Positions 5,482 to 54,569 of a DNA stretch of 64,000 nt are shown here, in pieces. The position numbers and the translations under genes are program-made. The DNA is from Candidatus Micrarchaeota archaeon (GTDB taxonomy: Archaea > Micrarchaeota > Micrarchaeia > Anstonellales > Anstonellaceae). The first letter of the stretch is position 1, and every line of letters starts with the position of its first letter. Where the stretch lies: the NCBI GenBank assembly GCA_026413965.1, contig JAOAJY010000001.1:125275-189274 (forward strand), written 5' to 3'. The notes beneath the pieces were generated by a model. That model saw only the letters and a list, made by a program, of their open reading frames with translations. It was not told the origin of the DNA and made no database searches.

Positions 5482-6648
5482 TTACACCCTGCTTTTTCTC
5501 AACGATAGGACAAAATCTGCCTCTTCCTCATCAAGCCTAAAGTAGCCTGCGGCGCCTTCCGGATTGCGCCTGCAAAGCTCTGCCAGCAGAGGGAGATAAT
5601 GGCTGGCTTGCTTAATCGAGCAGTGGCAGGCGGCTGCCACTTTCCTCAAAAGGCTGAGCCGCGCAGCCCTTGGCTGCTTGGTTGCGCCCATTTGCCTCAA
5701 AAAATCAGGATAGGCCAGGTTTTTGAATTTTTTGTATGGGCCAAGCTTTGACACTGCCACGCCTGCCGAAGCCAAGTCTTTGGAATACCTCAGGTAGCCC
5801 CAGTGCTGCTGCCTGGAAATCCTGCCGTCAAAAACATCCGCGCGAGAAAGGCAGCTGTACGCCTCCGCTATCTCAAAAGGCTTCTCGTATTCCAGCGGTA
5901 TGTTGTGGGCTATCCAAAGTTTCAAAGTGTCATGCTCGACTTCGGAAAGCAAGGCGGCTTTGCGCGCCTCAGAATAGCTGCCAGCTTTGAGTATTGCCCG
6001 CACGACCTCAAAAGCATTCTTTTCTGAATCTCTGGAAGCGTGCATGTTCCTTCCTTTCAAATCGTTTATCGCTGCCCGGACATCTCCGCCTGAAGCCTGC
6101 GCGATAATTCCCAGATGCTCTTGAGGCATCTCTGAGCCTGCCGCCATGCGCCGCAGCAGAGGCAAAATGGACGAGGCAGGCACTCTGCGCATCTCCAAAG
6201 GAGTGCAGTGCGGCCTTATCTGCGAAAGGCTTTTGCTGTAAAGGGAAGCGGCAGTCAGGATTATGGGCTGGCTGGAAGAGGAGACTAGCCTCAAAATCGC
6301 TGCTGCGCCGCCACGGTCTTCTTTGCCAGAAAGCGAATCGGCATCATCTATCAAAATGAGCCGCAGGTTTCCAAAAAGAGTGGAGGAATTTGAAGCATGC
6401 AAGACTACCCTTTCAACCGTTTCCTGGTCGCGGACGTCCGAGGCATTGAACTCCAAAAGCTCCCAGCCAAACTCTTCCGCAAGCGCATGGGCAAGAAAGG
6501 TTTTGCCTATTCCTGTTGGCCCGAACACCAAAAGCGGCTTTTGCGCCTCGCCTCTGCTCCACTTTTCAGCCCACTCCCTTGCGGACCGAACAGCGTCTGA
6601 ATTGCCCACAAGCTTGCTGGTTGGCTTCTCGCCTGAGGTGGCAGCCAT
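5482..6648 (-). CDS. rfcL: replication factor C large subunit
   Basis: N-terminal AREWAEKWSRGEAQKPLLVFGPTGIGKTFLAHALAEEFGWELLEFNASDVR is typical of archaeal RfcL. Walker B LILIDDAD. Confidence 0.7.
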   Translation of the reverse strand: MAATSGEKPTSKLVGNSDAVRSAREWAEKWSRGEAQKPLLVFGPTGIGKTFLAHALAEEFGWELLEFNASDVRDQETVERVVLHASNSSTLFGNLRLILIDDADSLSGKEDRGGAAAILRLVSSSSQPIILTAASLYSKSLSQIRPHCTPLEMRRVPASSILPLLRRMAAGSEMPQEHLGIIAQASGGDVRAAINDLKGRNMHASRDSEKNAFEVVRAILKAGSYSEARKAALLSEVEHDTLKLWIAHNIPLEYEKPFEIAEAYSCLSRADVFDGRISRQQHWGYLRYSKDLASAGVAVSKLGPYKKFKNLAYPDFLRQMGATKQPRAARLSLLRKVAAACHCSIKQASHYLPLLAELCRRNPEGAAGYFRLDEEEADFVLSLRKSRV

Positions 6649-11027: not shown

Positions 11028-11044
11028 GCTGCACAGGCAAAAAG

Positions 11045-11119
11045 TAGCGGGAAGTGGATTTGAACCACTGACCTCTGGGTTATGAGCCCAGCGGGCACTC
11101 CAGACTACCCTATCCCGCT
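11045..11119 (-). tRNA. initiator tRNA-Met (anticodon CAU)
   Basis: Reverse complement is AGCGGGA-UA-GGGU..GCCC-G-CUGGG-CUCAUAA-CCCAG-AGGUC-AGUGG-UUCAAAU-CCACU-UCCCGCU-A. The A1:U72 pair and three G-C pairs closing the anticodon loop are archaeal initiator features. Confidence 0.8.
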
Positions 11120-22148: not shown

Positions 22149-23462
22149 ATGGGGAATCTGGAAGCCTTCTTCAGCAGGTGCCAAGAGGCATGCGAAGAAA
22201 TATTGCGCATGCAAAATCCCCTCGTAGTCCATCACTATGACTGCGACGGCATAGCGTCAGGCTCAATAGCGGCGTGGTGGCTTGAGCAGAATGGAAAGCA
22301 GTATCGCATGGTTTCGGTCAGGAAGCTGGACGAGCTTTTCCTAAGCTCCATCGCCGGCGAGCCTAATTTGGTGTTTGTGGATTTGGGGAGCGGAACCCCT
22401 ATGGTGGAAGAGCTCAAAAGCAGCATCGTCATAATTGACCACCACCAGCCTGCGTTCAAATCCTGCCTGCAGGCAAATCCCCATCTTTTTGGGTTTGATG
22501 GCGGGCATGAAATCTCCGCCTCAGGCTGCGCTCATTTTGTCTTCAACTCTCGGGCAGATTTGGGGGTGGTGGGGGCAGTTGGAGACATCCAATATCCTCT
22601 AAAAAGCCTCAACAGGATAATGCTTGACAAGGCAGTGTCATCCAAGCAGGTGGCAGTCTCCACAGACCTGCGCCTTTTTGGCAGGAATTCCCGACCGCTC
22701 ATCCAGTTCCTCTCATTCTCAGACGACCCTTACCTTCCAGGGCTCACAGGGAACGAGGAGGCTTGCGCCAAGCTCCTCTCAGAGCTTTCCATCAGCCTCA
22801 AAGAAGGGGAAAAATGGCGGGCGTATTCAGACTTGTCTTTGGAGGAAAAAAGGCGGCTGGTCTCCGCTCTTGCGGAGATCGTCTCGCAGCGCATCTCTCC
22901 AGAGGCAGCTTCCAGCCTCACAGGAGAGGTGTATTCTCTGCTGCAGCAGCCGCAAAACACAGAGCTTTCGGATGCTTCTGAATTTGCCACCCTGCTCAAC
23001 GCATGCGGCAGGAACTCCCAGCCGCAGCTGGGCGTGGATGTCTGCCTTTCCAGGCAAGGCGCCTTTGAGTCAGCCCGCCTCCTTTTGGCTGAGCATAGGA
23101 GAAGGCTGCGGGAAGGGATAGAATTTGCCCTCAAAAACGTGCAGGATTTCGGCAAGTTCTTTCTGATAGATGGCCGCGGAGCCATTCCAGACTCCATAAT
23201 CGGCGTGGTTTCAGGCATGATTTTTCCAGGAGGCAAAAGCAAGCCTGTGCTGGGGCTCTCCCTTGAGGAGACTGGCGCGATAAAGCTTTCTGCAAGGGGA
23301 ACTAGGAAGCTTGTTGAGGAAGGGCTCAACTTGGGCAAGATAATGGCAGAAGCAAGCTCTTCGGTCGGAGGGGTTGGCGGAGGGCACAACATAGCGGCAG
23401 GAGCCACCATACCCGCAGACAAGCTTGATGCGTTTGTGCAGGAGTTCGCAAGGAGGCTATGA
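22149..23462 (+). CDS. DHH-family phosphoesterase (RecJ/GAN-like)
   Basis: HHYDCDGIASG (motif I) and IIDHHQP (DHH motif). ATG at 22149 is in frame with the longer listed ORF. Confidence 0.6.
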   Translation: MGNLEAFFSRCQEACEEILRMQNPLVVHHYDCDGIASGSIAAWWLEQNGKQYRMVSVRKLDELFLSSIAGEPNLVFVDLGSGTPMVEELKSSIVIIDHHQPAFKSCLQANPHLFGFDGGHEISASGCAHFVFNSRADLGVVGAVGDIQYPLKSLNRIMLDKAVSSKQVAVSTDLRLFGRNSRPLIQFLSFSDDPYLPGLTGNEEACAKLLSELSISLKEGEKWRAYSDLSLEEKRRLVSALAEIVSQRISPEAASSLTGEVYSLLQQPQNTELSDASEFATLLNACGRNSQPQLGVDVCLSRQGAFESARLLLAEHRRRLREGIEFALKNVQDFGKFFLIDGRGAIPDSIIGVVSGMIFPGGKSKPVLGLSLEETGAIKLSARGTRKLVEEGLNLGKIMAEASSSVGGVGGGHNIAAGATIPADKLDAFVQEFARRL

Positions 23463-25766
23463 CTTCTTGGCTTTTTTGGGCTTCTCAATGCTTTCCTGCA
23501 TCTCCGCGCTTTCCTGGACTTCCTGGCTGACCAAAGAGGAGAAGACTTTTTGCCATTCAGCATCCACCAATTTCCAATCCACCTCTCCTTCTGATGCCTC
23601 CAGCCTCTTGAGCAGGTTGTTTGCTTGCGTGGTGCATTTGAGGACAAAGTCAAGCTCCAAAAACTGCGGGTGGGAATACTTGCGGGAAGCCTCGAGTATC
23701 TGAGAATAAAGCTTGCCTTTGAAAAACGCCTCCATGATGTACTGCGCAGGAGGAATTCCTGTCTCCTCGCATCTTCTCTCAAGAGCAGGAGGGATGAATT
23801 CCAACTTCAGACTCTTTGAGATTTTGCCCAAATCCGCATCAGCAAGAGACTTTGCCTCTGCTTCTGGGAGGTTGGTGAAAAGGCATTTCAGCCTGGTGCT
23901 CTCTATGTCTTCTCCCCTCTCAAGCCTGAAAACCTCCACAAATTTCCTCTCCTTCAAATCAGTCTCATACTGGAAGCCCAGCATCCTGTAAACCTGCGCC
24001 TTTCTCCCAAACCTCACTTTTTTGAGGAAAGAGTACCTGTCAGTTGAGAACATGGAGGCAGCCGGCACCCCAAACACCAGCTCAAGCCTGTCCTGCACGT
24101 CCTTCAACGACTGGGCATGGAGGTTGTAAAGAAGGAATATGCCTGGCTGCGTGTTCAGCAGGTTGATCACTCCCTGCACAGCAAGGCGCGAGCGGATTTC
24201 ATTTATTATGACGCAGGCATCTCCCATGCGCAAGGCCGCATTGGTCATGGAGACCAAGTCAAGCTCGCTGCTCCCTATGTCTTCCCTGTCTGAAGACTGG
24301 ACTTGCACTGCGCCTATGTGGAAACCGCGCTTCCGGTAGGCTTTGGTAGGAATCTCCTCAATATCCTGTATTGGCAATATCCTCTTCTTTGTCCCTATGG
24401 CGGCGATTTTTGCTGAGGTGAAGGCGGTTTTGCCCACTCCTTTTAGCCCAAGGACAGCCTCAGAGCAGCCCAGGCTGACCATGACATCGTCATATCCTGC
24501 AAAAAAAGGGCTCATGGAGCCAAGCTTAAGATACATGGGGTAGGTGAAAGGCTGGTCCCTCATTATCCTAAGCGCAGCTTGAAGCTCCCCGAAAGTCGCA
24601 GGCGGCCTTTGCAGGTGGCATCTCATGGCAAGCCGGGTGAGGACCACATCAATCACCGGCTGGTTCTTGTCAAACCGCTTGGTTCCTTGCGATGCCGCCA
24701 CTATGTTCTTGAACGCATTCTCCATCATCTCATGGTTGTATCTCCAAAGCGTATGGCACAGGCCGTACTTGGCATGCTCTATGTAAATGGGAGAATTCTC
24801 GCCATCGATGTAAATGTCAGTTATGTTGTCCCTGTCCAAAGCCATGTTCTCAATAGGCGCGCCCAAGCCAACCACCCATGCGGCAGCTTCTCTGCCCATG
24901 GCAATTGCCTGCTCTTGCGTTATGGGTATCTTCTCCAAAGTGGCTCGGTCTATGAACGATTGCGCATACTCGCGCGAGCGGTCATCAAAGACAGTCGCAT
25001 AATCCAACGTTTGCCGTATGTCTTTCAAGCCTTCCTGTATTGTAGCCCTAAGCATCTCCTGAAGCTTGGCAGGCAGGTTCTCTATGGTCGGGTTCTCAAT
25101 AGTGTAAAGGTGCGCCTCTCCGCCGGGTATGTCGTAGATTTTCACTTGCAGCCCTCCTGGAAGCTCGTATTGGGCATCCTTTGAGTCAATCAAGACAGCC
25201 TCCTTTGGGACTGAGAGCATGAAGTTTTGTATGAAAAGCAGGCTCTTGAGCCCAAGCAGCGCCAAAAAGGCCGCCCGCAAATCCCCTGTCTTTTGGCAAA
25301 GAAGATAAAGGGAAGACTTGGTGTAGGCTTCAAGTATCCCATTCACCCAAGCCTTGAAGTTCCTGTGCCCCTCAACAAAAACCGCCTTTTCTGGGTAAGG
25401 CTCGCTGTATGACTTCAGCACTTGCGCAGCCACCAGCGGATTCATGAACATGAATTCGTAAAAGTCTTTCAGCGCCTTCTTTCTCTGCTGGTAATAGTCG
25501 TCCTCGGGCCTGCCATAAGTCTTTGGGTTGAGCATTATCGCCTCGACCTGCCTCACAATAGCGTTGTACTCAGAAATTATCGCGCTTTTTTCAGCATCCA
25601 GCTCCACCACTATCTCTTCTTCATATCTCATGGTTTTCCAAGGCTTCAGGAGCTGCGAGGTGACCCTCAGATGCGAGTTTATGCACTGGGGGGTGGTCAA
25701 TCCAAGGCCGCAAGTGGGGCAGTCCATCACCAGGCGCATCCCTTGGTATGAAGGTCGGCAACCCAT
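23457..25766 (-). CDS. highly divergent type II/IV secretion-family ATPase (FlaI/PilB/VirB11-like) with long N- and C-terminal extensions
   Basis: N2-like ITDIYIDGENSPIYIEHAKYG, Walker A GLKGVGKT, Asp box RILPIQDIEEIP, Walker B DACVIINEIRS, and His box LLNTQPGIFLLYNLHAQS, in canonical order. Length 769 aa. Confidence 0.55.
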   Translation of the reverse strand: MGCRPSYQGMRLVMDCPTCGLGLTTPQCINSHLRVTSQLLKPWKTMRYEEEIVVELDAEKSAIISEYNAIVRQVEAIMLNPKTYGRPEDDYYQQRKKALKDFYEFMFMNPLVAAQVLKSYSEPYPEKAVFVEGHRNFKAWVNGILEAYTKSSLYLLCQKTGDLRAAFLALLGLKSLLFIQNFMLSVPKEAVLIDSKDAQYELPGGLQVKIYDIPGGEAHLYTIENPTIENLPAKLQEMLRATIQEGLKDIRQTLDYATVFDDRSREYAQSFIDRATLEKIPITQEQAIAMGREAAAWVVGLGAPIENMALDRDNITDIYIDGENSPIYIEHAKYGLCHTLWRYNHEMMENAFKNIVAASQGTKRFDKNQPVIDVVLTRLAMRCHLQRPPATFGELQAALRIMRDQPFTYPMYLKLGSMSPFFAGYDDVMVSLGCSEAVLGLKGVGKTAFTSAKIAAIGTKKRILPIQDIEEIPTKAYRKRGFHIGAVQVQSSDREDIGSSELDLVSMTNAALRMGDACVIINEIRSRLAVQGVINLLNTQPGIFLLYNLHAQSLKDVQDRLELVFGVPAASMFSTDRYSFLKKVRFGRKAQVYRMLGFQYETDLKERKFVEVFRLERGEDIESTRLKCLFTNLPEAEAKSLADADLGKISKSLKLEFIPPALERRCEETGIPPAQYIMEAFFKGKLYSQILEASRKYSHPQFLELDFVLKCTTQANNLLKRLEASEGEVDWKLVDAEWQKVFSSLVSQEVQESAEMQESIEKPKKAKKS

Positions 25767-25849: not shown

Positions 25850-26065
25850 TCATGCATTCTTCAGCTTCGCCTTGTAGACATATCCGTCCTTCCCAAGGTA
25901 GTACATGTACCCTTTCTGCTTCTCCACCTTCTCAGTGCCGACCTTCTTTTTCCTTCCGCCTTTGTTGTGCTTCATCGGGGCAGCCCAAACATATCCGTCC
26001 TTCCCTATGTAGTAAAGGTAGCCGTCCTCGCGCTTGATTTTCTCGCTCCCAATCTTTTGTCCCAT
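25850..26065 (-). CDS. small basic protein with internal tandem duplication
   Basis: EDGYLYYIGKDGYVWAAPMK and QKGYMYYLGKDGYVYKAKLK are two near-identical modules in 71 aa. Sits directly upstream of the ATPase on the same strand. Confidence 0.4.
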   Translation of the reverse strand: MGQKIGSEKIKREDGYLYYIGKDGYVWAAPMKHNKGGRKKKVGTEKVEKQKGYMYYLGKDGYVYKAKLKNA

Positions 26066-26196: not shown

Positions 26197-27522
26197 ATGG
26201 ATTTGGGAAGGAGCCTGCGCGCCGCTCTGGCGAAATTCACAGGCGCTCCGCTGGCAGACGAAAAAGCGGTCAAATTGCTTTGCCGCGAGCTTCAGCGCAT
26301 ACTCATCTCCTCAGACGTGAATGTGCGCCTGGTTTTTGAGCTGACCAAGAAGATAGAGGCAAGGGCTCTTGACTCAAAGCTTGCAAAGGGCTTGTCTTTG
26401 AGGGAGCATGTGGTCAAGGTGGTTTATGAGGAGCTTTCCTCTCTTATGGGAAGCCAATACGAGCCAAAAATCAGCCCCCACAAGATTCTTCTTCTCGGGC
26501 TTTACGGGAGCGGCAAGACCACCACAGCAGGCAAGCTTGCTCACTTTTACAAAAGCAGAGGGCTTTCGGTAGCGCTGGTATGCTGCGATACCGACCGCCC
26601 GGCAGCATATGAGCAGCTTGAGCAAGTGGCGAAATCCTCCGGCTCCGCATTCTATGGCATCAAAGGAGAAAAGGACGCGCTGAAAATACTTGGCTATGCG
26701 ATGCAAAAATGCAAAGAAGACGTGATAATAGCGGATTCTTCGGGAAGAAGCGCGTTTGACGAGGCTCTTGTGCAGCAGCTCAAGCAGATAAGCCAAGCCT
26801 TCAGCCCAGACGAAAAATTCCTGGTGATATCTGCCGACATAGGGCAGGTGGCAGGCAAGCAGGCTGAGCAGTTCAACCAAGCCGTAGGGCTGTCTGGCGT
26901 TGTAATCACCAAGCTGGATGGCAGCGGAAAAGGGGGAGGGGCGCTTTCCGCAGTTGCTGCCAGCGGGGCGAAAGTCGCATTCGTCGGCACAGGCGAAAAG
27001 ATGGACGCTTTGGAGCCTTTCAACGCCCAGAAGTTCGTGGGCAGGCTTCTTGGCTTTCCTGATTTGGAGGCGCTGATGCAGAAAGTCAAGAAAATCTCAG
27101 AGGAAGAGAAGCTGCAAGAGGGATTGGACGAGAAGCTTACCCTGAGGGCTTTCTATGAGCAGCTTCGGGCAGCCAAAAAGCTCGGGCCGCTATCAAGCGT
27201 GTTCTCCATGCTTGGCATGGCTGATGTGCCTGACGAGCTTGTGAAAAACAGCGAAGAGAAGCTGAAGAAATTCGAGAGCATAATAAACTCCATGACGCCG
27301 CAAGAAAGGGAAGACGCGCAGCTTGTCAAGAAAAGCCGCTCCAGGATAGAAAGGATAGCGCGCGGCTCCGGAACCTCTGAAAAAGACGTGCGCGAGCTGA
27401 TTTCCCAATTTGAGAAAGTGGAAAGCATGGTCAACCAATTCAAGCACAACCGAAGCCTGAGGAAAAAGATGGAGAAGCTTATGCGGGGCGCAAACATAGA
27501 CTTGTCAAGGCTTGGAGGCTGA
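26197..27522 (+). CDS. srp54: signal recognition particle protein SRP54
   Basis: G-domain GLYGSGKTTTAGKLA and DTDRPAA. M-domain SMTPQEREDAQLVKKSRSRIERIARGSGTSEKDVRELISQFEKV. Confidence 0.85.
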   Translation: MDLGRSLRAALAKFTGAPLADEKAVKLLCRELQRILISSDVNVRLVFELTKKIEARALDSKLAKGLSLREHVVKVVYEELSSLMGSQYEPKISPHKILLLGLYGSGKTTTAGKLAHFYKSRGLSVALVCCDTDRPAAYEQLEQVAKSSGSAFYGIKGEKDALKILGYAMQKCKEDVIIADSSGRSAFDEALVQQLKQISQAFSPDEKFLVISADIGQVAGKQAEQFNQAVGLSGVVITKLDGSGKGGGALSAVAASGAKVAFVGTGEKMDALEPFNAQKFVGRLLGFPDLEALMQKVKKISEEEKLQEGLDEKLTLRAFYEQLRAAKKLGPLSSVFSMLGMADVPDELVKNSEEKLKKFESIINSMTPQEREDAQLVKKSRSRIERIARGSGTSEKDVRELISQFEKVESMVNQFKHNRSLRKKMEKLMRGANIDLSRLGG

Positions 27523-27524
27523 CC

Positions 27525-28274
27525 TCAAATTCTTGGCTTCATGAGCGCAAGCTCTTTTGCAGCAAGCTCCTCAATCACTTCTTTGGCAATGACCCGCCTG
27601 CCGCCAATTTTCTCGTGCGGTATCCTGTTCCTGTCCAGCCTCCTCTCAAACGCATTCCTCTTTATCTTCACTCCCTTGGAATTCAGCACCTGCACAGCCT
27701 CAGCCACATCATAATAATTCTTGCATACGTGTATCATGCTTTCAATGGCGGACTTTGGCACCCAGCGCTGCGTCCCAATCTTGAGGGACGGGACAGAGTT
27801 TTTCTCTATTCTTCCGATGAAAGCGCGGAGGTTTATCTTCTCGTATTTCTTCAGCTCATTATATGCCTGCTTGACTGTGTAAAACTCATTAGCAAGGGAC
27901 ACCCAATCCTCAACAACAGGCTTGGGTATGAGGCGCTTGTTTCCAATCTTTTCTGAGCGGATTGACCGCCTCTCCACGCGCCCTCCAAAAGCGCGGAAAG
28001 AAAGGTCCACTCCCCCTTTCCTCAGCTCTTCATATGCCTCCTCAAGAGTGTAAAGGCCCATGCTTTTCAGCTGCTCCCTCTCAAGCTTGTCTTGCGCATG
28101 CATCTGCTTGGCTTTCTCCACAATCTCGCTGATGCTGTCATGAATCTCTTTCTCAACGCTTGCCCGCTTGGCTTTGAGGTCGGATATTTTAAGCGATTTC
28201 AGCTTGGCTACAACAGGGTCCTTGACAGTCTTTTCTATCACAATTCTTCTCCCGCGAGGCATATGGTCACCCAC
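27525..28274 (-). CDS. protein composed of three tandem excisionase-type (HTH_17-like) DNA-binding repeats
   Basis: Three ~45-aa modules ending RSIRSEKIGNKRLIPKPVVEDW, NSVPSLKIGTQRWVPKSAIESM and NRIPHEKIGGRRVIAKEVIEEL. Each is preceded by Y..EA...L...GV..S.RAF. Confidence 0.5.
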   Translation of the reverse strand: MGDHMPRGRRIVIEKTVKDPVVAKLKSLKISDLKAKRASVEKEIHDSISEIVEKAKQMHAQDKLEREQLKSMGLYTLEEAYEELRKGGVDLSFRAFGGRVERRSIRSEKIGNKRLIPKPVVEDWVSLANEFYTVKQAYNELKKYEKINLRAFIGRIEKNSVPSLKIGTQRWVPKSAIESMIHVCKNYYDVAEAVQVLNSKGVKIKRNAFERRLDRNRIPHEKIGGRRVIAKEVIEELAAKELALMKPRI

Positions 28275-28387
28275 TCCTTTTACTCATAAATACACATTTT
28301 ACCATAATTTTTTGCCACCACTCATTTATAAGCCTTCCCTTCTGCTTTTGGCAAGGCTTCCCGGCTCTTGCCTACAAGTTAGCCGTG

Positions 28388-28402
28388 CAATATTTAAATA
28401 CT
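28388..28402 (+). promoter_or_regulatory. candidate TATA box (AATATTTAAATAC) about 25 nt upstream of the proposed GTG start of pus10; leaderless arrangement
   Basis: AT-rich box in a divergent intergenic region. The spacing fits archaeal BRE/TATA-to-TSS distance. Confidence 0.3.
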
Positions 28403-28419
28403 ATTTCAAGAACCACATC

Positions 28420-29577: not shown

Positions 29578-30474
29578 ATGCTGGAGTTCTTCCAAGCCCC
29601 GCCAGAAGTTCCTGGGATAGAGGCAAGGATTGCTGTGGCAGTGGCTTTCACGGCAGCTGCGGCATACTATGACATGTTCAACAAAAAATGGGTGCCAAAC
29701 GCGCTCCTTTACGCGTTCATCCTTTCCGCCATCGCCGTCAACATAGCTTTTTTTGAGGAGAAGGTTTTCATGCAAGCAGTTGCGTTTGGCGCAGCTGCAT
29801 TTGCGGTTTCCTATCCTTTGTACAAAATGGGGCAGCTTGGAGGGGCAGACGTCTATGCTTATTCAGGAATAGCCCTCTCCATTCCCTATCTTCCTCAGCC
29901 TATTTTTGGGCCTGCCCAGCAGATTCCATACCCATTTCTTTTCTCAGCGCTTGCCCCAACCGGGCTGGCTTTCATTGCCCACATGCTTGTCAGGTTCGTC
30001 CCATACATAGCGGCAAGGCTCAAGTCAGGAGAGGTTCGGATAAGCGCGCAAAAAGCAGCCCCGGCAGCCCTGATTTCGCTTGCGTTCCTGTTTTTCATCT
30101 ATTCGCTGTCCAGCCTGCCAGTGGCTCTCCCCGCCCACTATCTTGCCATTCTTGGCTTTCTTTTTTCAGCGCTGGTTTTCTTCTCATTGTTCAAGGAGGA
30201 AATCAAGGAAAGCATGATAGAGTACCTGCCGCTTTCAAAAATCCAGCCAGAAGATGTGCTTGCTGTTGAGAAAATGGACCAAAAGGCAGTCTTGCGCTTG
30301 AGGCTTAATCCGCTGCTTGACCAAGGAGCAATCAGCAGGATGAAAAAAGCGAAGCTCAAAAAAGCCCCAATATTCACCAAGATGCCATTTTTCTTGCCCT
30401 ACCTTCTCTTCGGGCTCATCATCAGCATCCTTTTTGGGGACATGGTGCATTTCTTCCTCAATTCCGCCTTATAG
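29578..30474 (+). CDS. A24-family prepilin/preflagellin peptidase
   Basis: First catalytic Asp block YYDMFNKKWVPNALL (D x4 K x VPN), second block MGQLGGADVYAYSGIAL (GGxD), and a polytopic membrane topology. Confidence 0.55.
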   Translation: MLEFFQAPPEVPGIEARIAVAVAFTAAAAYYDMFNKKWVPNALLYAFILSAIAVNIAFFEEKVFMQAVAFGAAAFAVSYPLYKMGQLGGADVYAYSGIALSIPYLPQPIFGPAQQIPYPFLFSALAPTGLAFIAHMLVRFVPYIAARLKSGEVRISAQKAAPAALISLAFLFFIYSLSSLPVALPAHYLAILGFLFSALVFFSLFKEEIKESMIEYLPLSKIQPEDVLAVEKMDQKAVLRLRLNPLLDQGAISRMKKAKLKKAPIFTKMPFFLPYLLFGLIISILFGDMVHFFLNSAL

Positions 30475-38410: not shown

Positions 38411-39274
38411 TTGGCTCAAGCAGCAGCCAAAGGCTTTCTCTCAGCGCTCTTTGCCTTTTTGCTTGCCTCCGGCTTATCCCTAAGCGTCATGGCGCAAAAG
38501 CTGCTTGACGCCGAAGCCTATATGGCTTCAATTGAGAAATACGCTTCCTATTCTGAAATGAGGAATCACTTGGCGGCATCCATCGCAAGAAGCTTCCCGC
38601 CAAATTTGAGGCAGGGCGCGCAAGAAGAGATAAGAAGCGCCATAACTGAGGATTATCTGCGCAGCCAAGTGCGAAATGCAGTGGGCTCTGCCCTCGACTA
38701 TCTTTCCTCAAAATCAGACAGGCTTTATTTGCGGATGGACCTCTCTCCAATCAAAGAAAAGCTGAAAGAAAGCCAGCTGCCTGAGTTGAGGGTTGCCTCT
38801 CAAGCCTTTCCTGCCAGTCTTGATTTGGCTGAGGAAGAGGGGAACTTGGAGCAGATGAAGCAGCTGGAAAGCGCGCGCCAGCAGATAAGCCAGGCAAACA
38901 AAATAAAGCACCTGCTTGTCGCAGCCTCTATCCTGCCTCTTGCGTTGCTTTTCTTTTTCCATGAAGGCTATAGAGGCTGGCTGCATGGGTGCGGAAGCCT
39001 TCTTTTGAAGGCAGGCGTATCTTGCCTATCTTTAAGCGCAGTCCTTTTTGCCATGCCTTTTGCTCTGCCAGAAATCCTTCCGTCCATGCAAAATTCATCG
39101 CAGGGAGCTGAAACCGCCCGCCTTGCCGGGCAGATATTGGGGGAAGTTTTTTCGCAGGCAGGAGTTGAGCTTGCGCTGCATTCCGCCCCAATCATTTTGG
39201 CAGGCGGAGCCCTCATGCTCCTGCTCAAGAAGCCCGAAACGAATAATAATCCAAGCTCCGAAGCTTCTGCATGA
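38411..39274 (+). CDS. hypothetical membrane protein
   Basis: TTG start. N-terminal TM helix plus C-terminal TM helices. Its stop overlaps the start of the giant downstream gene. Confidence 0.35.
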   Translation: MAQAAAKGFLSALFAFLLASGLSLSVMAQKLLDAEAYMASIEKYASYSEMRNHLAASIARSFPPNLRQGAQEEIRSAITEDYLRSQVRNAVGSALDYLSSKSDRLYLRMDLSPIKEKLKESQLPELRVASQAFPASLDLAEEEGNLEQMKQLESARQQISQANKIKHLLVAASILPLALLFFFHEGYRGWLHGCGSLLLKAGVSCLSLSAVLFAMPFALPEILPSMQNSSQGAETARLAGQILGEVFSQAGVELALHSAPIILAGGALMLLLKKPETNNNPSSEASA

Positions 39275-42200
39275 TGATGGGGTGTCCAAAAAGGCACCTT
39301 GCCTTTCTTGCGAGCCTTCTTCTTTTCGGCTTAGCTTTCCCATCCGGGCTTTCAGGCTGCTTTTCCCCATCGCCTCTTGAAAGGTTCTGGGAGAGCCCAG
39401 GGTATTTCGAGTCCAACCCGCACGTTTCCAATTTGGGCATTTTCAAGTTCTATTCCTACGCATTTGACAATTCGACAAAAAGCCTGGAGCTTGAGCAAAC
39501 AGCGCTGCTGTCGCAGCAGGAAATCTTTTCTGCCCTAAGCCTCGAGCAAAGGGAAGAATTCTTCCCAGCCATAAAAGAGCTTGAGGCATCGCAAAGCCAC
39601 CTTTCGAAGGCAAAAGCGCATGCCGCAGAAGCCCAGAGGCTTTCCTCAGAGTCCCAAAAGCTCGCCTCGCATATTTTTGACCAAACCCAAATCGCCCTCC
39701 TTTACCTCCCCTATCCATTTTCCAACTTGCCGGCAATATGGCTTTTTCTCAAGTCCCAGGCAGCCTCTGAGTATATCTCAAAATACCCTGCAACTCTGCA
39801 AGCCGCATATTCCCACTCGGCAAGCGCCTATGACTCTGCCCAAAAAGCAGCCTATCTTGCAGCCTCCCTTGCGGACAAAAAAGCCTCGGCATTGCTGTTT
39901 GCAGGGGCAGGAGACGCCAAATACTCAGGGAAGGCGAAAAGCGCCTATTACCGCTACCAGGAGCTTCTTTCCTCAGGCAGGCTTTGCGGCAAGCAAAGGG
40001 CAGAAAGCATACGCGGCTATTTTTCATCCAGCCCCAGCATGCCTGACTTTTCGCAGGCAGGGTTCGGCCAGCATCTGAGGCAGATTGCAGGCAAAGGCAA
40101 CAATTCCTCGCTTTTCCAGCTTGCTTTGCTTTATTCCGAGCTTTCCTCTGCCCATGCCGCCATGCAAGAGGAGTACTTTGAGATGAGGGCAAGCGCGCTG
40201 GAATCCCAAAGGCAGCTTGAGCTCCACATTTCCCTGCTGGAGTCCGAAAGGCTGGACCTGATAGACAGCCTATCAAATGAGGCTGGACAAAAGAGCCTTT
40301 CAGCAGGGACAGGCTTTGCCGGGCTCTCCAGCGGCCTGAAAATAGCCAAAGACAGGCTCTTCTCATCGCAGCACCTTCTTTCGTCATCCGAATCCATCGC
40401 AAAATCAAAAGATTACCAAGGCTACCTTTCGGATGCAATCCACAAAGCCTCGCAAGCCAAAGAGCTCTCCCAAAGCTCGCTTTCTTCTCTGTCCAAAATA
40501 AGGCAAGACGCAATTTTTCTTGCGGACGGCAAAAGAAAAGAGGCGGAGCAATCCATATTAGACGCTGAAAGCTATTTCTCAAATGGAAGCCAGGCAAGCT
40601 CAAAAATGCGGGCGCAGTCTCTTCTCATGCTTCAGGATGCGAAAAAGAAGTTCAGCCTTGCGTCACAGGCAAAGCGGATAGGGGAGCAGTTTGTCCTTTA
40701 TTCAGAGGCAAAAGCCATGGCAGAAGCTTCGCGCCAGGCTTTGCTCACTGGAAGCCTGGCTTCCGCGAAAGAGCAAGCCTTCAAGGAGGTCCAGGCGCTT
40801 TCTGATGCCATCTTGAAGGCAGAAAAGGACGGGCTGGATGTCTCCTTTGAGAAGTCCAAGCTTGCAGAGTACCAGCAGCTTTTGCAGCTTGTTGATTCTG
40901 CGGAGGCAATGCTTGCATTAAGCGAAGCTTCCAGAAGCGAGCATCAAGGGCTGATTTTGAGGCTTTCAGGAAAATACCGGCATCTCTCCGACGGATTCCC
41001 GCAGCTGCAAATGCTTGTGCTGGAAATAAGAAAAAAAGACCCGCTTTTCTTGCCGGAGTTTGACAGCGTGTCCAAATACTTCAAGGAGGGGGGTTTGGAC
41101 GCCAAGGAGGCTGCAGGCAAGCTGAAGGAAATAGAGGCTTCCATCAGCGAGCTATTATCCAAGGCAAAAAGCAGAATACCTCAGCACCTCTCGCAGGTGC
41201 TCTCGGAGAATGCAGAAGCCATAGAGCTAAGGGAGCCGTTCTCGATAGGCAAGCCAAGCAAATACAAGGCAAGCATCCACACCCAAAACACAGCAGAGAT
41301 TGGCTACAGCGGCACTGTGGTGTTTTTTGCCAGGACTTCCTCTGCCCTCTCAACCCAGGACTTTTCAGGAGGAAGCCCAATCAAAGACGCTTACCAAAAA
41401 GAAGGCAAAACCGCAATAGAGATTTCCGGAGTTTCTCCAAAGCAAACCCTGTCTTTCTTCTTTGAGAAATTTGAGCAGCCGGTCCAGGCAGTCTCCCTAA
41501 AGCCATTTTGCCATTCCGCTACTCAGGAGGAGGCTTCAGCAGGGGCAGAGCTTCGTTTTGTGTCAGAAAAGCCGCTGGAATCGGCTTTTTTTGCCCTGCC
41601 TGCCCCAGAAAGCCTGGCAAGCCCATCAGCATCATATCTTGGCTTCCCTGCTGACTACATAAGGCAAGCCCCAGGAGGGATGCTTGAGGGGAGAATATCC
41701 CAAATCCAAAAGGGCGATGGGAGGCTGGAAATAAGCTATAAAGTCATGAAGCCATTTGATGCCAAAGTTGTCGAGGAGAGCTCCAAAAGCCTAGGGGCAG
41801 GAAGGCAAGCCATCCGCATGTCTTTGGTGGTTGAGAACGCGGCTCTTGATTGCGCACAAGCTTCAGTCTCTTTCCAGCTTCCTTATTTTGGGATTGAGAA
41901 CTTCTCCGTCGCAAGCCCAAGCGGCAGTGCCATATTGTCCAAGCAGGTTGCGCAAAACTCCGCAGGCTCTGAAGCAAAATTTGCCTTTTCCCCTCTTGCC
42001 AAGGGCTCAAAAGCGCATTTTGAGCTGCATTTTGAGGTCCAAAACAAATCTGAAGCTTTAAGCCACGCTATCCGGATGCTTGAGCTTTCAGCTTTGCACT
42101 CAAACAGCACCCTCCAGCATTTGGCTTTGGAGCAAGCGCGGCTTCTTGCAGAGGCAAACAAGACTGATGAGGCGCTGCTTCTTTCCCAGTCAGCCTACCG

Positions 42201-43317
42201 CCTTCAAAGCCAAAGCAGCCCTCTTGACATCATCTCCTACCAAGAGAGCCTGGAGCATGCCCAAGCTCTCCTCTCTTCGGCAAAATCCTCCCAAAAAGCA
42301 ATGCGCCAATCCTCATCAATGCATCTTGAGCTGTCAAAGGCAATAGCAGACCTTGAGTCTTCAATCTCGTCAGCCTCTTTTCTGGCTGAGCGCGGAAGCT
42401 ACTCAAAGGCGGCAAGCCAGCTTAGGGAATCTTCTGGCAGCTTCCAATCTTTCATAGCCCAGCTTGCCTCAAAATCCGCAAATGACGCATTGGAAGGGTA
42501 TTCAAAGGCAAAAGAGAGGCAGGCGGACCAAGCGCTGCTTTCATCCTGCTCGCAGGCAATTTCCCAGGGAAGCCGCCTGTTTTCCCAAGGCGAAATCCTA
42601 AAGTCGCTTGAGCGCTTCGCAGAAGCCCAAAGCATCCTGTCTGAAATTTCCGGCATCCAGGAAGCTCAAGAGAAAGAGCTGGCTTTGCAGGCAGAAGAGA
42701 TAGGGAAAAAATTCCAAGCCCTAAAAGAAGAGTTTGAAAGCAAGCTTTCGTCATATTCTCCGCAGTACTCCTCATTGTCCCAGCAAAGCAGAAGGAAGCT
42801 TCCAATAACCCCAAGCGAGGCGCAGGCAAGGCTCGCGGAGGCGCAAAGGAAGATTTCCTCAGCCTCAAAATACAAGGATGCCAAGCAGCGGCTGCAAGAG
42901 GCGAGCCAATCCTACATGCTTTTGGAGTCTGCGGACAAGTCGCTTTCAGATGCAATAAGCCAATTGCGCTCCTCAGCAGAGTCATCGCTTAAGGTGGCAA
43001 GAATAGCTTTGGCTGAGGCGCAAGCAAAGTCCTCAAGCCAGGACAGCTCCCTGCTGGCTCAGATGGAGAAAGAGGCTGAGAAGGCAGAGGAGGCTTACGC
43101 CAACGGGCTTTATGCGGATTCCCTTTCGTCTTCTGACAGGGTGATAAGCGCGGCAAACGCGCTGTTGTCATCAAAAAAGCAAGATGGCATCCCCAAGGCA
43201 GAATTGCTTGCAGCCATCTCCGCCATATTCATTATTGCGGCTGCCTATTTCCTGCTCTCAAAAGCCAACAGGGGCAGCCAGAAAAAAGAGAAGAAAAGCA
43301 TCCCCAAGTCCGATTAG
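39271..43317 (+). CDS. giant (1348 aa) low-complexity coiled-coil surface protein with N-terminal signal/lipobox-like peptide and C-terminal TM anchor
   Basis: N-terminus MMMGCPKRHLAFLASLLLFGLAFPSGLSGC. Body rich in Ser/Ala/Leu/Gln/Glu/Lys. C-terminus LLAAISAIFIIAAAYFLLSKANRGSQKKEKK. Confidence 0.5.
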   Translation: MMMGCPKRHLAFLASLLLFGLAFPSGLSGCFSPSPLERFWESPGYFESNPHVSNLGIFKFYSYAFDNSTKSLELEQTALLSQQEIFSALSLEQREEFFPAIKELEASQSHLSKAKAHAAEAQRLSSESQKLASHIFDQTQIALLYLPYPFSNLPAIWLFLKSQAASEYISKYPATLQAAYSHSASAYDSAQKAAYLAASLADKKASALLFAGAGDAKYSGKAKSAYYRYQELLSSGRLCGKQRAESIRGYFSSSPSMPDFSQAGFGQHLRQIAGKGNNSSLFQLALLYSELSSAHAAMQEEYFEMRASALESQRQLELHISLLESERLDLIDSLSNEAGQKSLSAGTGFAGLSSGLKIAKDRLFSSQHLLSSSESIAKSKDYQGYLSDAIHKASQAKELSQSSLSSLSKIRQDAIFLADGKRKEAEQSILDAESYFSNGSQASSKMRAQSLLMLQDAKKKFSLASQAKRIGEQFVLYSEAKAMAEASRQALLTGSLASAKEQAFKEVQALSDAILKAEKDGLDVSFEKSKLAEYQQLLQLVDSAEAMLALSEASRSEHQGLILRLSGKYRHLSDGFPQLQMLVLEIRKKDPLFLPEFDSVSKYFKEGGLDAKEAAGKLKEIEASISELLSKAKSRIPQHLSQVLSENAEAIELREPFSIGKPSKYKASIHTQNTAEIGYSGTVVFFARTSSALSTQDFSGGSPIKDAYQKEGKTAIEISGVSPKQTLSFFFEKFEQPVQAVSLKPFCHSATQEEASAGAELRFVSEKPLESAFFALPAPESLASPSASYLGFPADYIRQAPGGMLEGRISQIQKGDGRLEISYKVMKPFDAKVVEESSKSLGAGRQAIRMSLVVENAALDCAQASVSFQLPYFGIENFSVASPSGSAILSKQVAQNSAGSEAKFAFSPLAKGSKAHFELHFEVQNKSEALSHAIRMLELSALHSNSTLQHLALEQARLLAEANKTDEALLLSQSAYRLQSQSSPLDIISYQESLEHAQALLSSAKSSQKAMRQSSSMHLELSKAIADLESSISSASFLAERGSYSKAASQLRESSGSFQSFIAQLASKSANDALEGYSKAKERQADQALLSSCSQAISQGSRLFSQGEILKSLERFAEAQSILSEISGIQEAQEKELALQAEEIGKKFQALKEEFESKLSSYSPQYSSLSQQSRRKLPITPSEAQARLAEAQRKISSASKYKDAKQRLQEASQSYMLLESADKSLSDAISQLRSSAESSLKVARIALAEAQAKSSSQDSSLLAQMEKEAEKAEEAYANGLYADSLSSSDRVISAANALLSSKKQDGIPKAELLAAISAIFIIAAAYFLLSKANRGSQKKEKKSIPKSD

Positions 43318-53327: not shown

Positions 53328-54569
53328 ATGCCGTCCTTTTCGGAGATTTTGAGCAAACCAACCGTTTTTGCAGACCGCAACGTGCTTTCGCCCCACTATG
53401 TGCCAGAGACGCTGCCATTCAGGGAAAAAGAGATAGAGCGGATAATGGTCTGGCTTTCTCCGGCTTTGAAAAATGAGCGCCCGCGCAACATATTCATCTA
53501 CGGCAAGACTGGGACAGGGAAAACCTGCTCGGTCAAGCACGTGTTGTCCAAGCTCTCCCAGCACAAGTCAAGCGCCTTCTCCTGCTACATAAATTGCAGG
53601 ATGTACAATTCCAGGTACCGTGTCATACAGAAGATAACAAAAGACCTGCTTCCAAGCTTGGACTCCATGGGCTTTGGGCTAGCCATGCTTTATGAGAAGA
53701 TGATGCACTCTGTTGACTTCGGAGATGCGCAGGCAGGCGCAGAGAGCGGAGGGCAGGCTGGCAAAAGGCTCATTGTGGTCCTTGACGAAGTTGACATGGT
53801 GAAAGACCTGGACGACTTGCTTTACACCCTGACCAGGTGCAACGATGAGCTCAAAAGAGGAAGCGTCAGCCTAATAGGGATATCAAACAAGCTTTCATTC
53901 AAGGACCAGCTGGGGCAGCGCTCCAAAAGCTCCCTGTGCGAAAACGAGATGGTCTTCGCCCCATACACCGCAAACCAGCTGCAGTCAATAATTGCCCAGC
54001 GGGCGCAAATCGGTTTCAAGCCAGGGGTGGTGGAGGAGTCCGCAATCAACCTTGCGGCTGCCATAACTGGCCAGGATGTTGGGGATGCAAGATATGCGCT
54101 CAAGCTTCTTATGAAAGCAGGGGAAATAGCGGACGAAAAGGGGCTGTCCAAAATCACAGACAAGGAGGTGGATGAGGCGCGGCGCTCGGTTGACAGGGAT
54201 GTGGTTTTTGAAGCCATCTCCACCCTTCCTGACCATCAGCAGCTGGTTTTGCTGGCTGTTGCCAATTTGGCTTTGGACAAAGGAAAGAACACCCGGCTTG
54301 CGGAAGCAGGCGAGGAGGATGCTCAGCTCCTCATATCAGGCGAGGTTTATGAGGAATACTCCAAAATGTGCAGAAGATACCGCAAGCCAAGAAGAAGCGC
54401 AAGGTGGTACCGCGAATACCTCAACGACTTGGAGATGCTTGGGCTGATAACCACCATAGAATCCGGGGCAGGAATGAGGGGAAGGACCAGGCTCATACGC
54501 ATAGGCTATCCTGCCTCTGATGTGAAAAAGATAGTGGAGAAAAACTTCCAGATAATAGAGTCTCCTTGA
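53328..54569 (+). CDS. orc1: Orc1/Cdc6 replication initiator
   Basis: NIFIYGKTGTGKTCSVKHV, Walker B VVLDEVD, and a C-terminal winged helix. Confidence 0.85.
   Translation: MPSFSEILSKPTVFADRNVLSPHYVPETLPFREKEIERIMVWLSPALKNERPRNIFIYGKTGTGKTCSVKHVLSKLSQHKSSAFSCYINCRMYNSRYRVIQKITKDLLPSLDSMGFGLAMLYEKMMHSVDFGDAQAGAESGGQAGKRLIVVLDEVDMVKDLDDLLYTLTRCNDELKRGSVSLIGISNKLSFKDQLGQRSKSSLCENEMVFAPYTANQLQSIIAQRAQIGFKPGVVEESAINLAAAITGQDVGDARYALKLLMKAGEIADEKGLSKITDKEVDEARRSVDRDVVFEAISTLPDHQQLVLLAVANLALDKGKNTRLAEAGEEDAQLLISGEVYEEYSKMCRRYRKPRRSARWYREYLNDLEMLGLITTIESGAGMRGRTRLIRIGYPASDVKKIVEKNFQIIESP

Follow-up and report, generated by a model that had tools for sequence, protein, structure and literature searches.

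What is a protein that strings together three excisionase-type helix-turn-helix (HTH) modules doing on the chromosome of an archaeon? The genomes of Micrarchaeota and other DPANN archaea are tiny, and how their DNA is organised and regulated is poorly understood. A 64-kb stretch of a Candidatus Micrarchaeota contig, hereafter called the window, carries a gene of this kind. The original prediction, made from the letters of the window, suggested that the product could be either a nucleoid or architectural protein or the remnant of a mobile-element regulator. We conclude, with modest confidence, that it is probably a core DNA-binding or architectural factor, specific to Micrarchaeota and inherited vertically, and not an excisionase. 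Judged from its sequence, the class that we favour for this triple winged-HTH (wHTH) protein is that of a nucleoid or architectural protein.

The open reading frame (ORF) predicted at 27525..28274 on the minus strand exists, and its translation holds all three of the repeat segments on which the prediction was built (RSIRSEKIGNKRLIPKPVVEDW, NSVPSLKIGTQRWVPKSAIESM and NRIPHEKIGGRRVIAKEVIEEL). Its GTG start at 28274 was replaced by an ATG at 28262 (MPRGRR...), which is almost certainly the true start, since an M-P/S/G-R N-terminus was found in all of the 35 orthologs aligned (35/35) and a Shine-Dalgarno-like sequence overlies the GTG. A GGTGA/GGTGG motif lies 5-10 nt ahead of the ATG in most orthologous loci. 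The gene is laid out as follows:

27525..28262, minus strand: coding sequence of 245 aa, with the stop codon at 27525-27527.
28267..28277, minus strand: Shine-Dalgarno-like sequence GGAGTGGGTGA, which overlies GTG 28274.

The encoded protein is basic, with a mass of 28 kDa, a pI of 9.95 and 54 K+R versus 34 D+E residues. An NCBI MAG protein annotated as [quoted passage not shown] matches it at 100% identity from end to end. The triple-wHTH gene converges with that for SRP54 (26197-27522) and diverges from an upstream Pus10 gene that likely starts at GTG 28420, and it is therefore co-transcribed with neither. The spacer of ~158 bp towards Pus10 (28263-28419) has a GC content of 40%, versus ~51% for the window. 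At the other end, where the gene converges with SRP54, the two stop codons (27520-27527) stand only 2 nt apart; this leaves no space for separate terminators, and so the 3' ends of the two transcripts must overlap or share a bidirectional termination signal.

Fifty ORFs tested across the window gave housekeeping families, which include a HerA-like protein, PRPP synthetase, GTPases, H+-PPase, GatD/E, TFE-alpha, aTrm56, SRP54, Pus10, an A24 peptidase, PolB, GAPDH, geranylgeranyl reductase, ATCase, thymidylate kinase, Orc1/Cdc6, SufBCD/S and Ogg. Several further observations were made on these and other genes. Divergent beside SRP54 is a 71-aa ORF (25850-26065, minus strand) with an internal duplication (..EDGYLYYIGKDGYVW.. 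/ ..QKGYMYYLGKDGYVY..), for which neither Pfam nor NCBIfam gave a match. Its identity across Micrarchaeota loci is 83-92%, above that of both SRP54 and the triple-wHTH protein, and it matches designed PQQ-type beta-propeller "Cake" proteins by sequence (6tjh, E = 2.9e-7). On the strength of this match it looks like a free-standing two-blade fragment, which might assemble into an oligomeric propeller. A 769-aa protein (23457-25766, minus strand; 74-85% identity in relatives) had no Pfam match at E <= 1e-3 and only far sub-threshold NCBIfam matches to the TadA, FlaI and VirB11 secretion ATPases (71 bits vs a cut-off of 373). It has a Walker A-like GLKGVGKT, a class A24 prepilin peptidase is encoded at 29578-30474, and the 769-aa protein is probably a divergent type IV filament ATPase. 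A 1348-aa ORF (39271-43317, plus strand) had no Pfam or NCBIfam match. The window also holds the Orc1/Cdc6 gene (53328-54569, plus strand; Cdc6_lid and Cdc6_C) and a second AAA/DnaA-like ATPase (5482-6648, minus strand), and its cumulative GC skew peaks at ~14-20 kb and then falls steadily; a replication origin may lie near the window.

Three repeat units of 56-58 aa start at residues 70, 127 and 183 of the triple-wHTH protein, so that the period measures 56-57 aa and not the ~45 aa first proposed. Local BLOSUM62 alignments of unit against unit scored 110, 92 and 76, as opposed to ~21-23 +/- 4 for shuffled sequences (z = 22.7, 16.1 and 12.6), and the observed score was reached by 0 of 2000 shuffles. 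The units of ten orthologs, aligned jointly, gave the consensus xxYxVxEAYxxLKKxGxxIxxRAFxGRxERxSIPSxKIGxxRxIPK, with A8, A23, F24, R27, K37 and R42 invariant. An AF2 model made from a 35-sequence alignment (pLDDT 88.9, pTM 0.77) has the topology beta-alpha-alpha-beta-beta-alpha three times over, and each of the three modules is predicted to be a winged helix of the Xis/MerR type. The protein is divided as follows:

28059..28262, minus strand: N-terminal region, residues 1-68, from the AF2 model and the alignment.
27885..28058, minus strand: wHTH module 1, residues 69-126, with recognition helix SFRAFGGRVERRS and wing SEKIGNKRLIP.
27717..27884, minus strand: wHTH module 2, residues 127-182, with recognition helix NLRAFIGRIEKNS and wing SLKIGTQRWVP.
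27528..27716, minus strand: wHTH module 3 and C-terminal helix, residues 183-245, with recognition helix KRNAFERRLDRNR and wing HEKIGGRRVIA.

In the model, helix 114-126 abuts strand 127-129 and helix 170-182 abuts strand 183-185, and the modules appear to be fused with essentially no linker. The R/K-rich stretch that ends each repeat had been taken for a helix; in the AF2 model it forms a beta-hairpin wing and the start of the C-terminal helix, and the recognition helices (RAFGGRVER, RAFIGRIEK and RNAFERRLDR) precede it. The invariant residues fall in the recognition helix and the wing (R-A-F-x-x-R, K-I-G and R-x-I-P). HTH_17 proteins contact DNA through their K-I-G / R-x-I-P wing and their R-rich helix (see also PMC6158623). 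Each recognition helix and wing differs from the other two, and all of them are essentially invariant in every clade examined. The N-terminal region begins with a conserved basic arm (MPRGKRIVIEK), short and disordered in the AF2 model, followed there by a short helix (16-23), a long one (26-56) and a third at 62-67. It is the least conserved part of the protein, with a mean pairwise identity of 0.47 versus 0.66-0.70 for the modules. Pfam matches of its helix to VPS28, STAS and HHH_9 fell below cut-off and were set aside as noise.

Sequence and structure searches agreed with the proposed HTH_17/Xis-type fold, in that both placed the repeats among excisionase/MerR-type winged-HTH modules. The protein passed NCBIfam TIGR01764 ("excise") in two stretches (32.4 bits vs a cut-off of 28.8). 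Pfam HTH_17 (PF12728) was sub-threshold for the window protein (18.6 bits vs a gathering score of 27), for which module 3 alone gave the best match (21.2 bits vs 27); the orthologs P0125, P0117 and P0142 exceeded the gathering score with 40.6, 30.3 and 28.0 bits, and PF12728 is precomputed for 13 of the 120 listed homologs. Pfam MerR, MerR_1 and MerR-DNA-bind did not match the window protein at E up to 10, and its architecture, a helix and three wHTH modules with nothing after the third, is not that of a classical MerR protein. Foldseek probabilities for MerR, Xis, TraN and RacA structures in the PDB were 0.77-0.99. The best PDB match was TraN (4p0z; probability 0.98, E = 4e-3); RacA bound to DNA (5i44) was matched with a probability of 0.99 and an rmsd of 2.3 A over 60 columns, and Pukovnik Xis (4j2n) with a TM to target of 0.71 and an rmsd of 1.8 A over 52 columns. 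Further matches were to MerR/SoxR, NmlR and GlnR. Against BFVD, Foldseek returned phage HTH and "excise" proteins, among them a few longer ones (117-188 aa) that align over 119-196 columns, which suggests from the predicted structures that these are multi-module proteins as well. Searching the PDB by sequence with the whole protein gave chance-level matches only (uL11 and adenylosuccinate lyase, E >= 0.19), and a profile of the repeat found no related chain there, with a single chance-level match (ApcE, E = 1.5).

A search of 5.8 billion proteins returned 442 homologs, of which the 120 listed are 54-100% identical to the query and span at least 91% of it; those named among them are nearly all labelled Micrarchaeota/Anstonellaceae. 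The family is narrow, as an exhaustive HMM search of 1.84 billion proteins at 50% identity found only 36 representatives. At least 164 GTDB species-representative genomes carry the gene. The 80 GTDB loci shown each lie on a different contig and are nearly all labelled Micrarchaeota, and the few other labels among them are probably due to mis-binning. Two clear orthologs bear bacterial labels, namely L019 (CAIYVS010000023.1; "uncultured Bacteroidetes bacterium", 76% identity) and P0118 ("Candidatus Omnitrophica bacterium", 54% identity), and both are probably Micrarchaeota contigs mis-binned into bacterial MAGs. A divergent homolog, P0131, was considered as a functional clue and discarded; it lies on an ordinary archaeal chromosomal contig (GatD, HerA-like) that gives no functional hint.

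The gene is single-copy and chromosomal across Micrarchaeota. The order Pus10/PepA24, triple-wHTH gene, SRP54 recurs in many of the examined loci of distinct Micrarchaeota genomes, while in more distant clades PolB lies downstream and SRP54 is not adjacent. Identity to the window protein tracks that of SRP54 (means of 66.1 vs 66.7%, a difference of -0.6 points, r = 0.88, n = 32 loci) and is 24-29 points above that of Pus10, PolB and PepA24. Judging by these identities, the gene appears to be under strong purifying selection. The frozen recognition helices and an evolution as slow as that of SRP54 favour a global chromosomal role over that of a local regulator, and this role would be that of an architectural factor or of a global regulator with many constrained sites.

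The pI of 9.95 and the invariant Arg and Lys residues of helix 2 and the wing suggest that the ligand is DNA. By analogy with related proteins, we infer how the modules may be arranged along it: in one polypeptide, three non-identical winged helices, rigidly joined, would each place a recognition helix of its own and a basic wing in the next groove along ~30 bp of DNA. The triple fusion would thereby do covalently what lambda Xis, Apl, BldC and RdfS do by cooperative head-to-tail oligomerisation on direct repeats, and would extend the two-module TraN, which acts as a monomer. The outcome would be a bent or stiffened nucleoprotein segment, with the N-terminal helix free for self-association or partner binding. 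A bolder possibility, which we advance tentatively and consider rather less probable than the general conclusion above, is that the protein is an essential, phylum-specific "micro-filament" in which three fused winged helices hard-wire an Xis-like array, and that it acts as a core factor of chromatin architecture or of general transcription, on a par with a universal housekeeping component; if true, the excisionase fold would have given rise to a new class of archaeal nucleoid protein.

The closest characterised relatives in structure put this arrangement into context. A monomer of TraN, from the Enterococcus plasmid pIP501, occupies a 34-bp DNA by inserting its two recognition helices into neighbouring major grooves and its wings into the minor groove; TraN is a repressor that also acts at the promoter directly upstream of its own gene (PMC6158623). 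TraN (4p0z/4pm3) resembles the window protein in being a single polypeptide of fused excisionase/MerR-like winged-HTH modules. However, it has two modules that form a pseudo-twofold "internal dimer" in ~120 aa and is plasmid-borne in a type IV secretion operon, whereas the window protein has three modules and an N-terminal helix and is chromosomal, archaeal and present across much of a phylum. Superposition of two modules on TraN was poor (rmsd ~11 A, TM to target 0.39), and the inter-module geometry therefore probably differs. With three modules, and with SRP54 and Pus10 as neighbours in place of a T4SS operon, the window protein does not belong to a TraN-like family, although by analogy its mechanism may be similar.

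BldC of Streptomyces, a MerR-like protein of 68 aa, forms head-to-tail multimers on direct repeats and distorts the DNA (PMC5859096). It too is a minimal MerR/Xis-type wHTH without an effector domain, and chromosomal rather than mobile, but it is a bacterial, single-domain protein that oligomerises non-covalently on 2-4 or more repeats, as opposed to three linked modules in 245 aa. Neither the whole protein nor the repeat profile matched BldC chains by sequence in the PDB. On direct repeats spaced by about one helical turn, excisionases assemble cooperatively head to tail (PMC7498355, PMC11963761), and RdfS forms helical filaments (PMC11963761). The excisionases lambda Xis, Pukovnik Xis, Apl, TorI and RdfS share the fold, and the window protein passes TIGR01764. 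These are single-domain proteins that are encoded beside an integrase on phages or ICEs and act at att sites, whereas the window protein has no integrase, mobile element or viral relatives, and neither an att site nor the boundaries of an element could be identified around its gene. RacA of Bacillus subtilis (5i44) likewise joins a MerR-like wHTH to a long helix or coiled coil and has a chromosomal architectural or anchoring role instead of effector-controlled transcription. RacA has a single N-terminal wHTH and a C-terminal coiled coil and is a symmetric dimer; in the window protein this order is reversed and the wHTH triplicated.

The triplicated array had been called unusual, and this holds in part. 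Triplication alone is not unprecedented, given the fused pair of TraN and the canonical tandem HTH_17 proteins P0155 (three repeats, Pfam 87.8 bits) and P0156 (four repeats, 98 bits), and the longer BFVD phage proteins also weigh against the claim. P0155 and P0156 are the most distant matches of the triple-wHTH family profile (E ~4e-4); they have typical bacterial-type HTH_17 sequences and no N-terminal helix, and their relationship to the family is marginal. What is new is that an N-terminal helix is combined with three specialised modules, in a single-copy gene that is found across Micrarchaeota, evolves as slowly as SRP54 and belongs to a family with no characterised member. A literature search found no paper on this family.

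Of the alternatives to a core chromosomal factor, the one that survives best is that of an autoregulated, sequence-specific transcription factor whose three modules read an element at its own transcription start. Many archaeal repressors block the recruitment of RNA polymerase, and the element, once bound, would do the same here. We consider this reading unlikely, as well as the block that it entails. It is based on the following promoter features:

28324..28334, minus strand: BRE/TATA box GGCTTATAAAT, with the consensus cGAAAGGnTTATAAA in 67 non-redundant loci.
28288-28305, minus strand: promoter-proximal element ATGGTAAAATGTGTATTT, 18 bp, with two GTA-containing half-sites 9-10 bp apart.

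The element begins ~20 nt past the TATA box, which is the predicted transcription start, and its form in the clade of the window is A-TGGTAAA-N3-TG(T/G)(A/T)TT. A third GTA-containing half-site, AGTAAAA (28278-28284), follows 9-10 bp further on here and in some genomes, but is weakly conserved. By its sequence, the element at 28288-28305 looks like an operator. The pattern ATGGTAAANNNTG, with 10 specified bases, has one occurrence in the window (28293-28305) and a single one in each of 24 loci, invariably 30-60 nt ahead of the start codon. When 692 kb were scanned with a PWM, all 32 sites of at least 19 bits (32/32) lay in this promoter and none elsewhere, although the use of the pattern as anchor for the motif alignment inflates the information content of the motif. 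Half-sites 9-10 bp apart have the spacing of Xis, Apl and BldC-type proteins (PMC7498355, PMC5859096), and TraN sets a precedent by repressing the promoter directly upstream of its own gene (PMC6158623). The 5'UTR has no stable or conserved RNA fold, which favours an element that works at the level of DNA. An RNA element there was rejected, as the MFE z-scores of 28 orthologous leaders were -1.6 to +1.4 with no common structure. A leaderless upstream ORF from the ATG of ATGGTAAA was not supported either; by eye, its peptides vary in sequence and in length (e.g. 6, 7 and 12 codons), and the ATG is replaced by TTG or AGG at some loci.

However, the element varies. Other clades have AATCATAAAATACAA or CGTATATAAGTTGTGTG in its place while the recognition helices are unchanged. 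Since the element differs between clades and its conservation is inflated by anchoring, autoregulation is a minority hypothesis and unproven. A conservation like that of SRP54 is also atypical of a local regulator, and the element may instead serve as an initiator or be bound by another factor. As a separate observation, AATCATAAAATACAA and CGTATATAAGTTGTGTG are themselves conserved, clade-specific sequences at the position of the element (loci L073, L076, L079, L081 and L083, and L046, L053, L054, L057 and L058). The reverse strand of AATCATAAAATACAA reads TGTATTTTATGATTA, which is similar to TGTATTTATGAGTA of the window; this likeness could be due to chance in AT-rich DNA or could mark an inverted operator. 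A genome-wide target motif was sought by 8-mer enrichment over 45.7 kb of intergenic DNA, where nothing but TATA boxes and T/A runs was over-represented; this result counts against the reading as a core factor.

A less probable alternative still, and one that we think doubtful, is that the modules form a tandem winged-helix scaffold for a conserved RNA or protein partner and not for DNA, possibly with a role in SRP or tRNA biology given the neighbouring genes. Comparable tandem winged helices are found in the C-terminal domains of SelB, which bind SECIS RNA, and in ESCRT-II, ScpB and UFL1. Components of universal machines are typically conserved to this degree, the gene often adjoins SRP54 and Pus10, and Foldseek gave low-probability matches to UFL1/DDRGK1, ESCRT-II, ScpB and SelB. 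The probabilities of these matches were 0.06-0.35, however, as compared to 0.77-0.99 for MerR, Xis, TraN and RacA; the gene is co-transcribed with neither SRP54 nor Pus10, the adjacency to SRP54 is lost in the more distant clades, and the conserved wing and R-rich helix, being DNA-contacting elements in HTH_17 proteins, also point to DNA.

The last alternative, an excisionase (recombination directionality factor) or the decayed regulator of an integrated mobile element, is highly improbable and effectively refuted: its sole support is the resemblance of domain families (TIGR01764 "excise", and the excisionase family phrog_1840 at E = 0.0024), against which stand the absence of integrase and recombinase families (Pfam) from the 50 ORFs spread over the 64-kb window, in agreement with the original prediction that no integrase lies nearby, a uniform GC content (0.46-0.54 across the window), a distance of 16 kb to the only tRNA gene of the window (11044-11119), a lack of relatives in IMG/VR viral contigs, no defence-system match in PADLOC beyond a marginal mad1 (E = 0.01), weak PHROGs matches of which the best (8.8e-5) is to a family of unknown function, and a chromosomal position kept under strong purifying selection in many loci of distinct genomes. 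The suggestion of a remnant of a mobile-element regulator is likewise contradicted by a gene that is single-copy, syntenic in many distinct genomes, conserved like SRP54 and absent from viral contigs.

We thus return to a vertically inherited core factor of the Micrarchaeota chromosome. If the protein were only a local autoregulated repressor, it would be a modest addition to the HTH_17 repertoire. Its occurrence across Micrarchaeota, its SRP54-like slow evolution and its frozen recognition helices single it out as a strong candidate for a chromatin or global regulatory factor that defines the lineage. If borne out, it would be a natural case in which the cooperative, non-covalent filament of Xis, BldC and RdfS has been turned into a single polypeptide, and such a covalent filament would be useful for understanding and engineering the recognition of long, asymmetric DNA sites.
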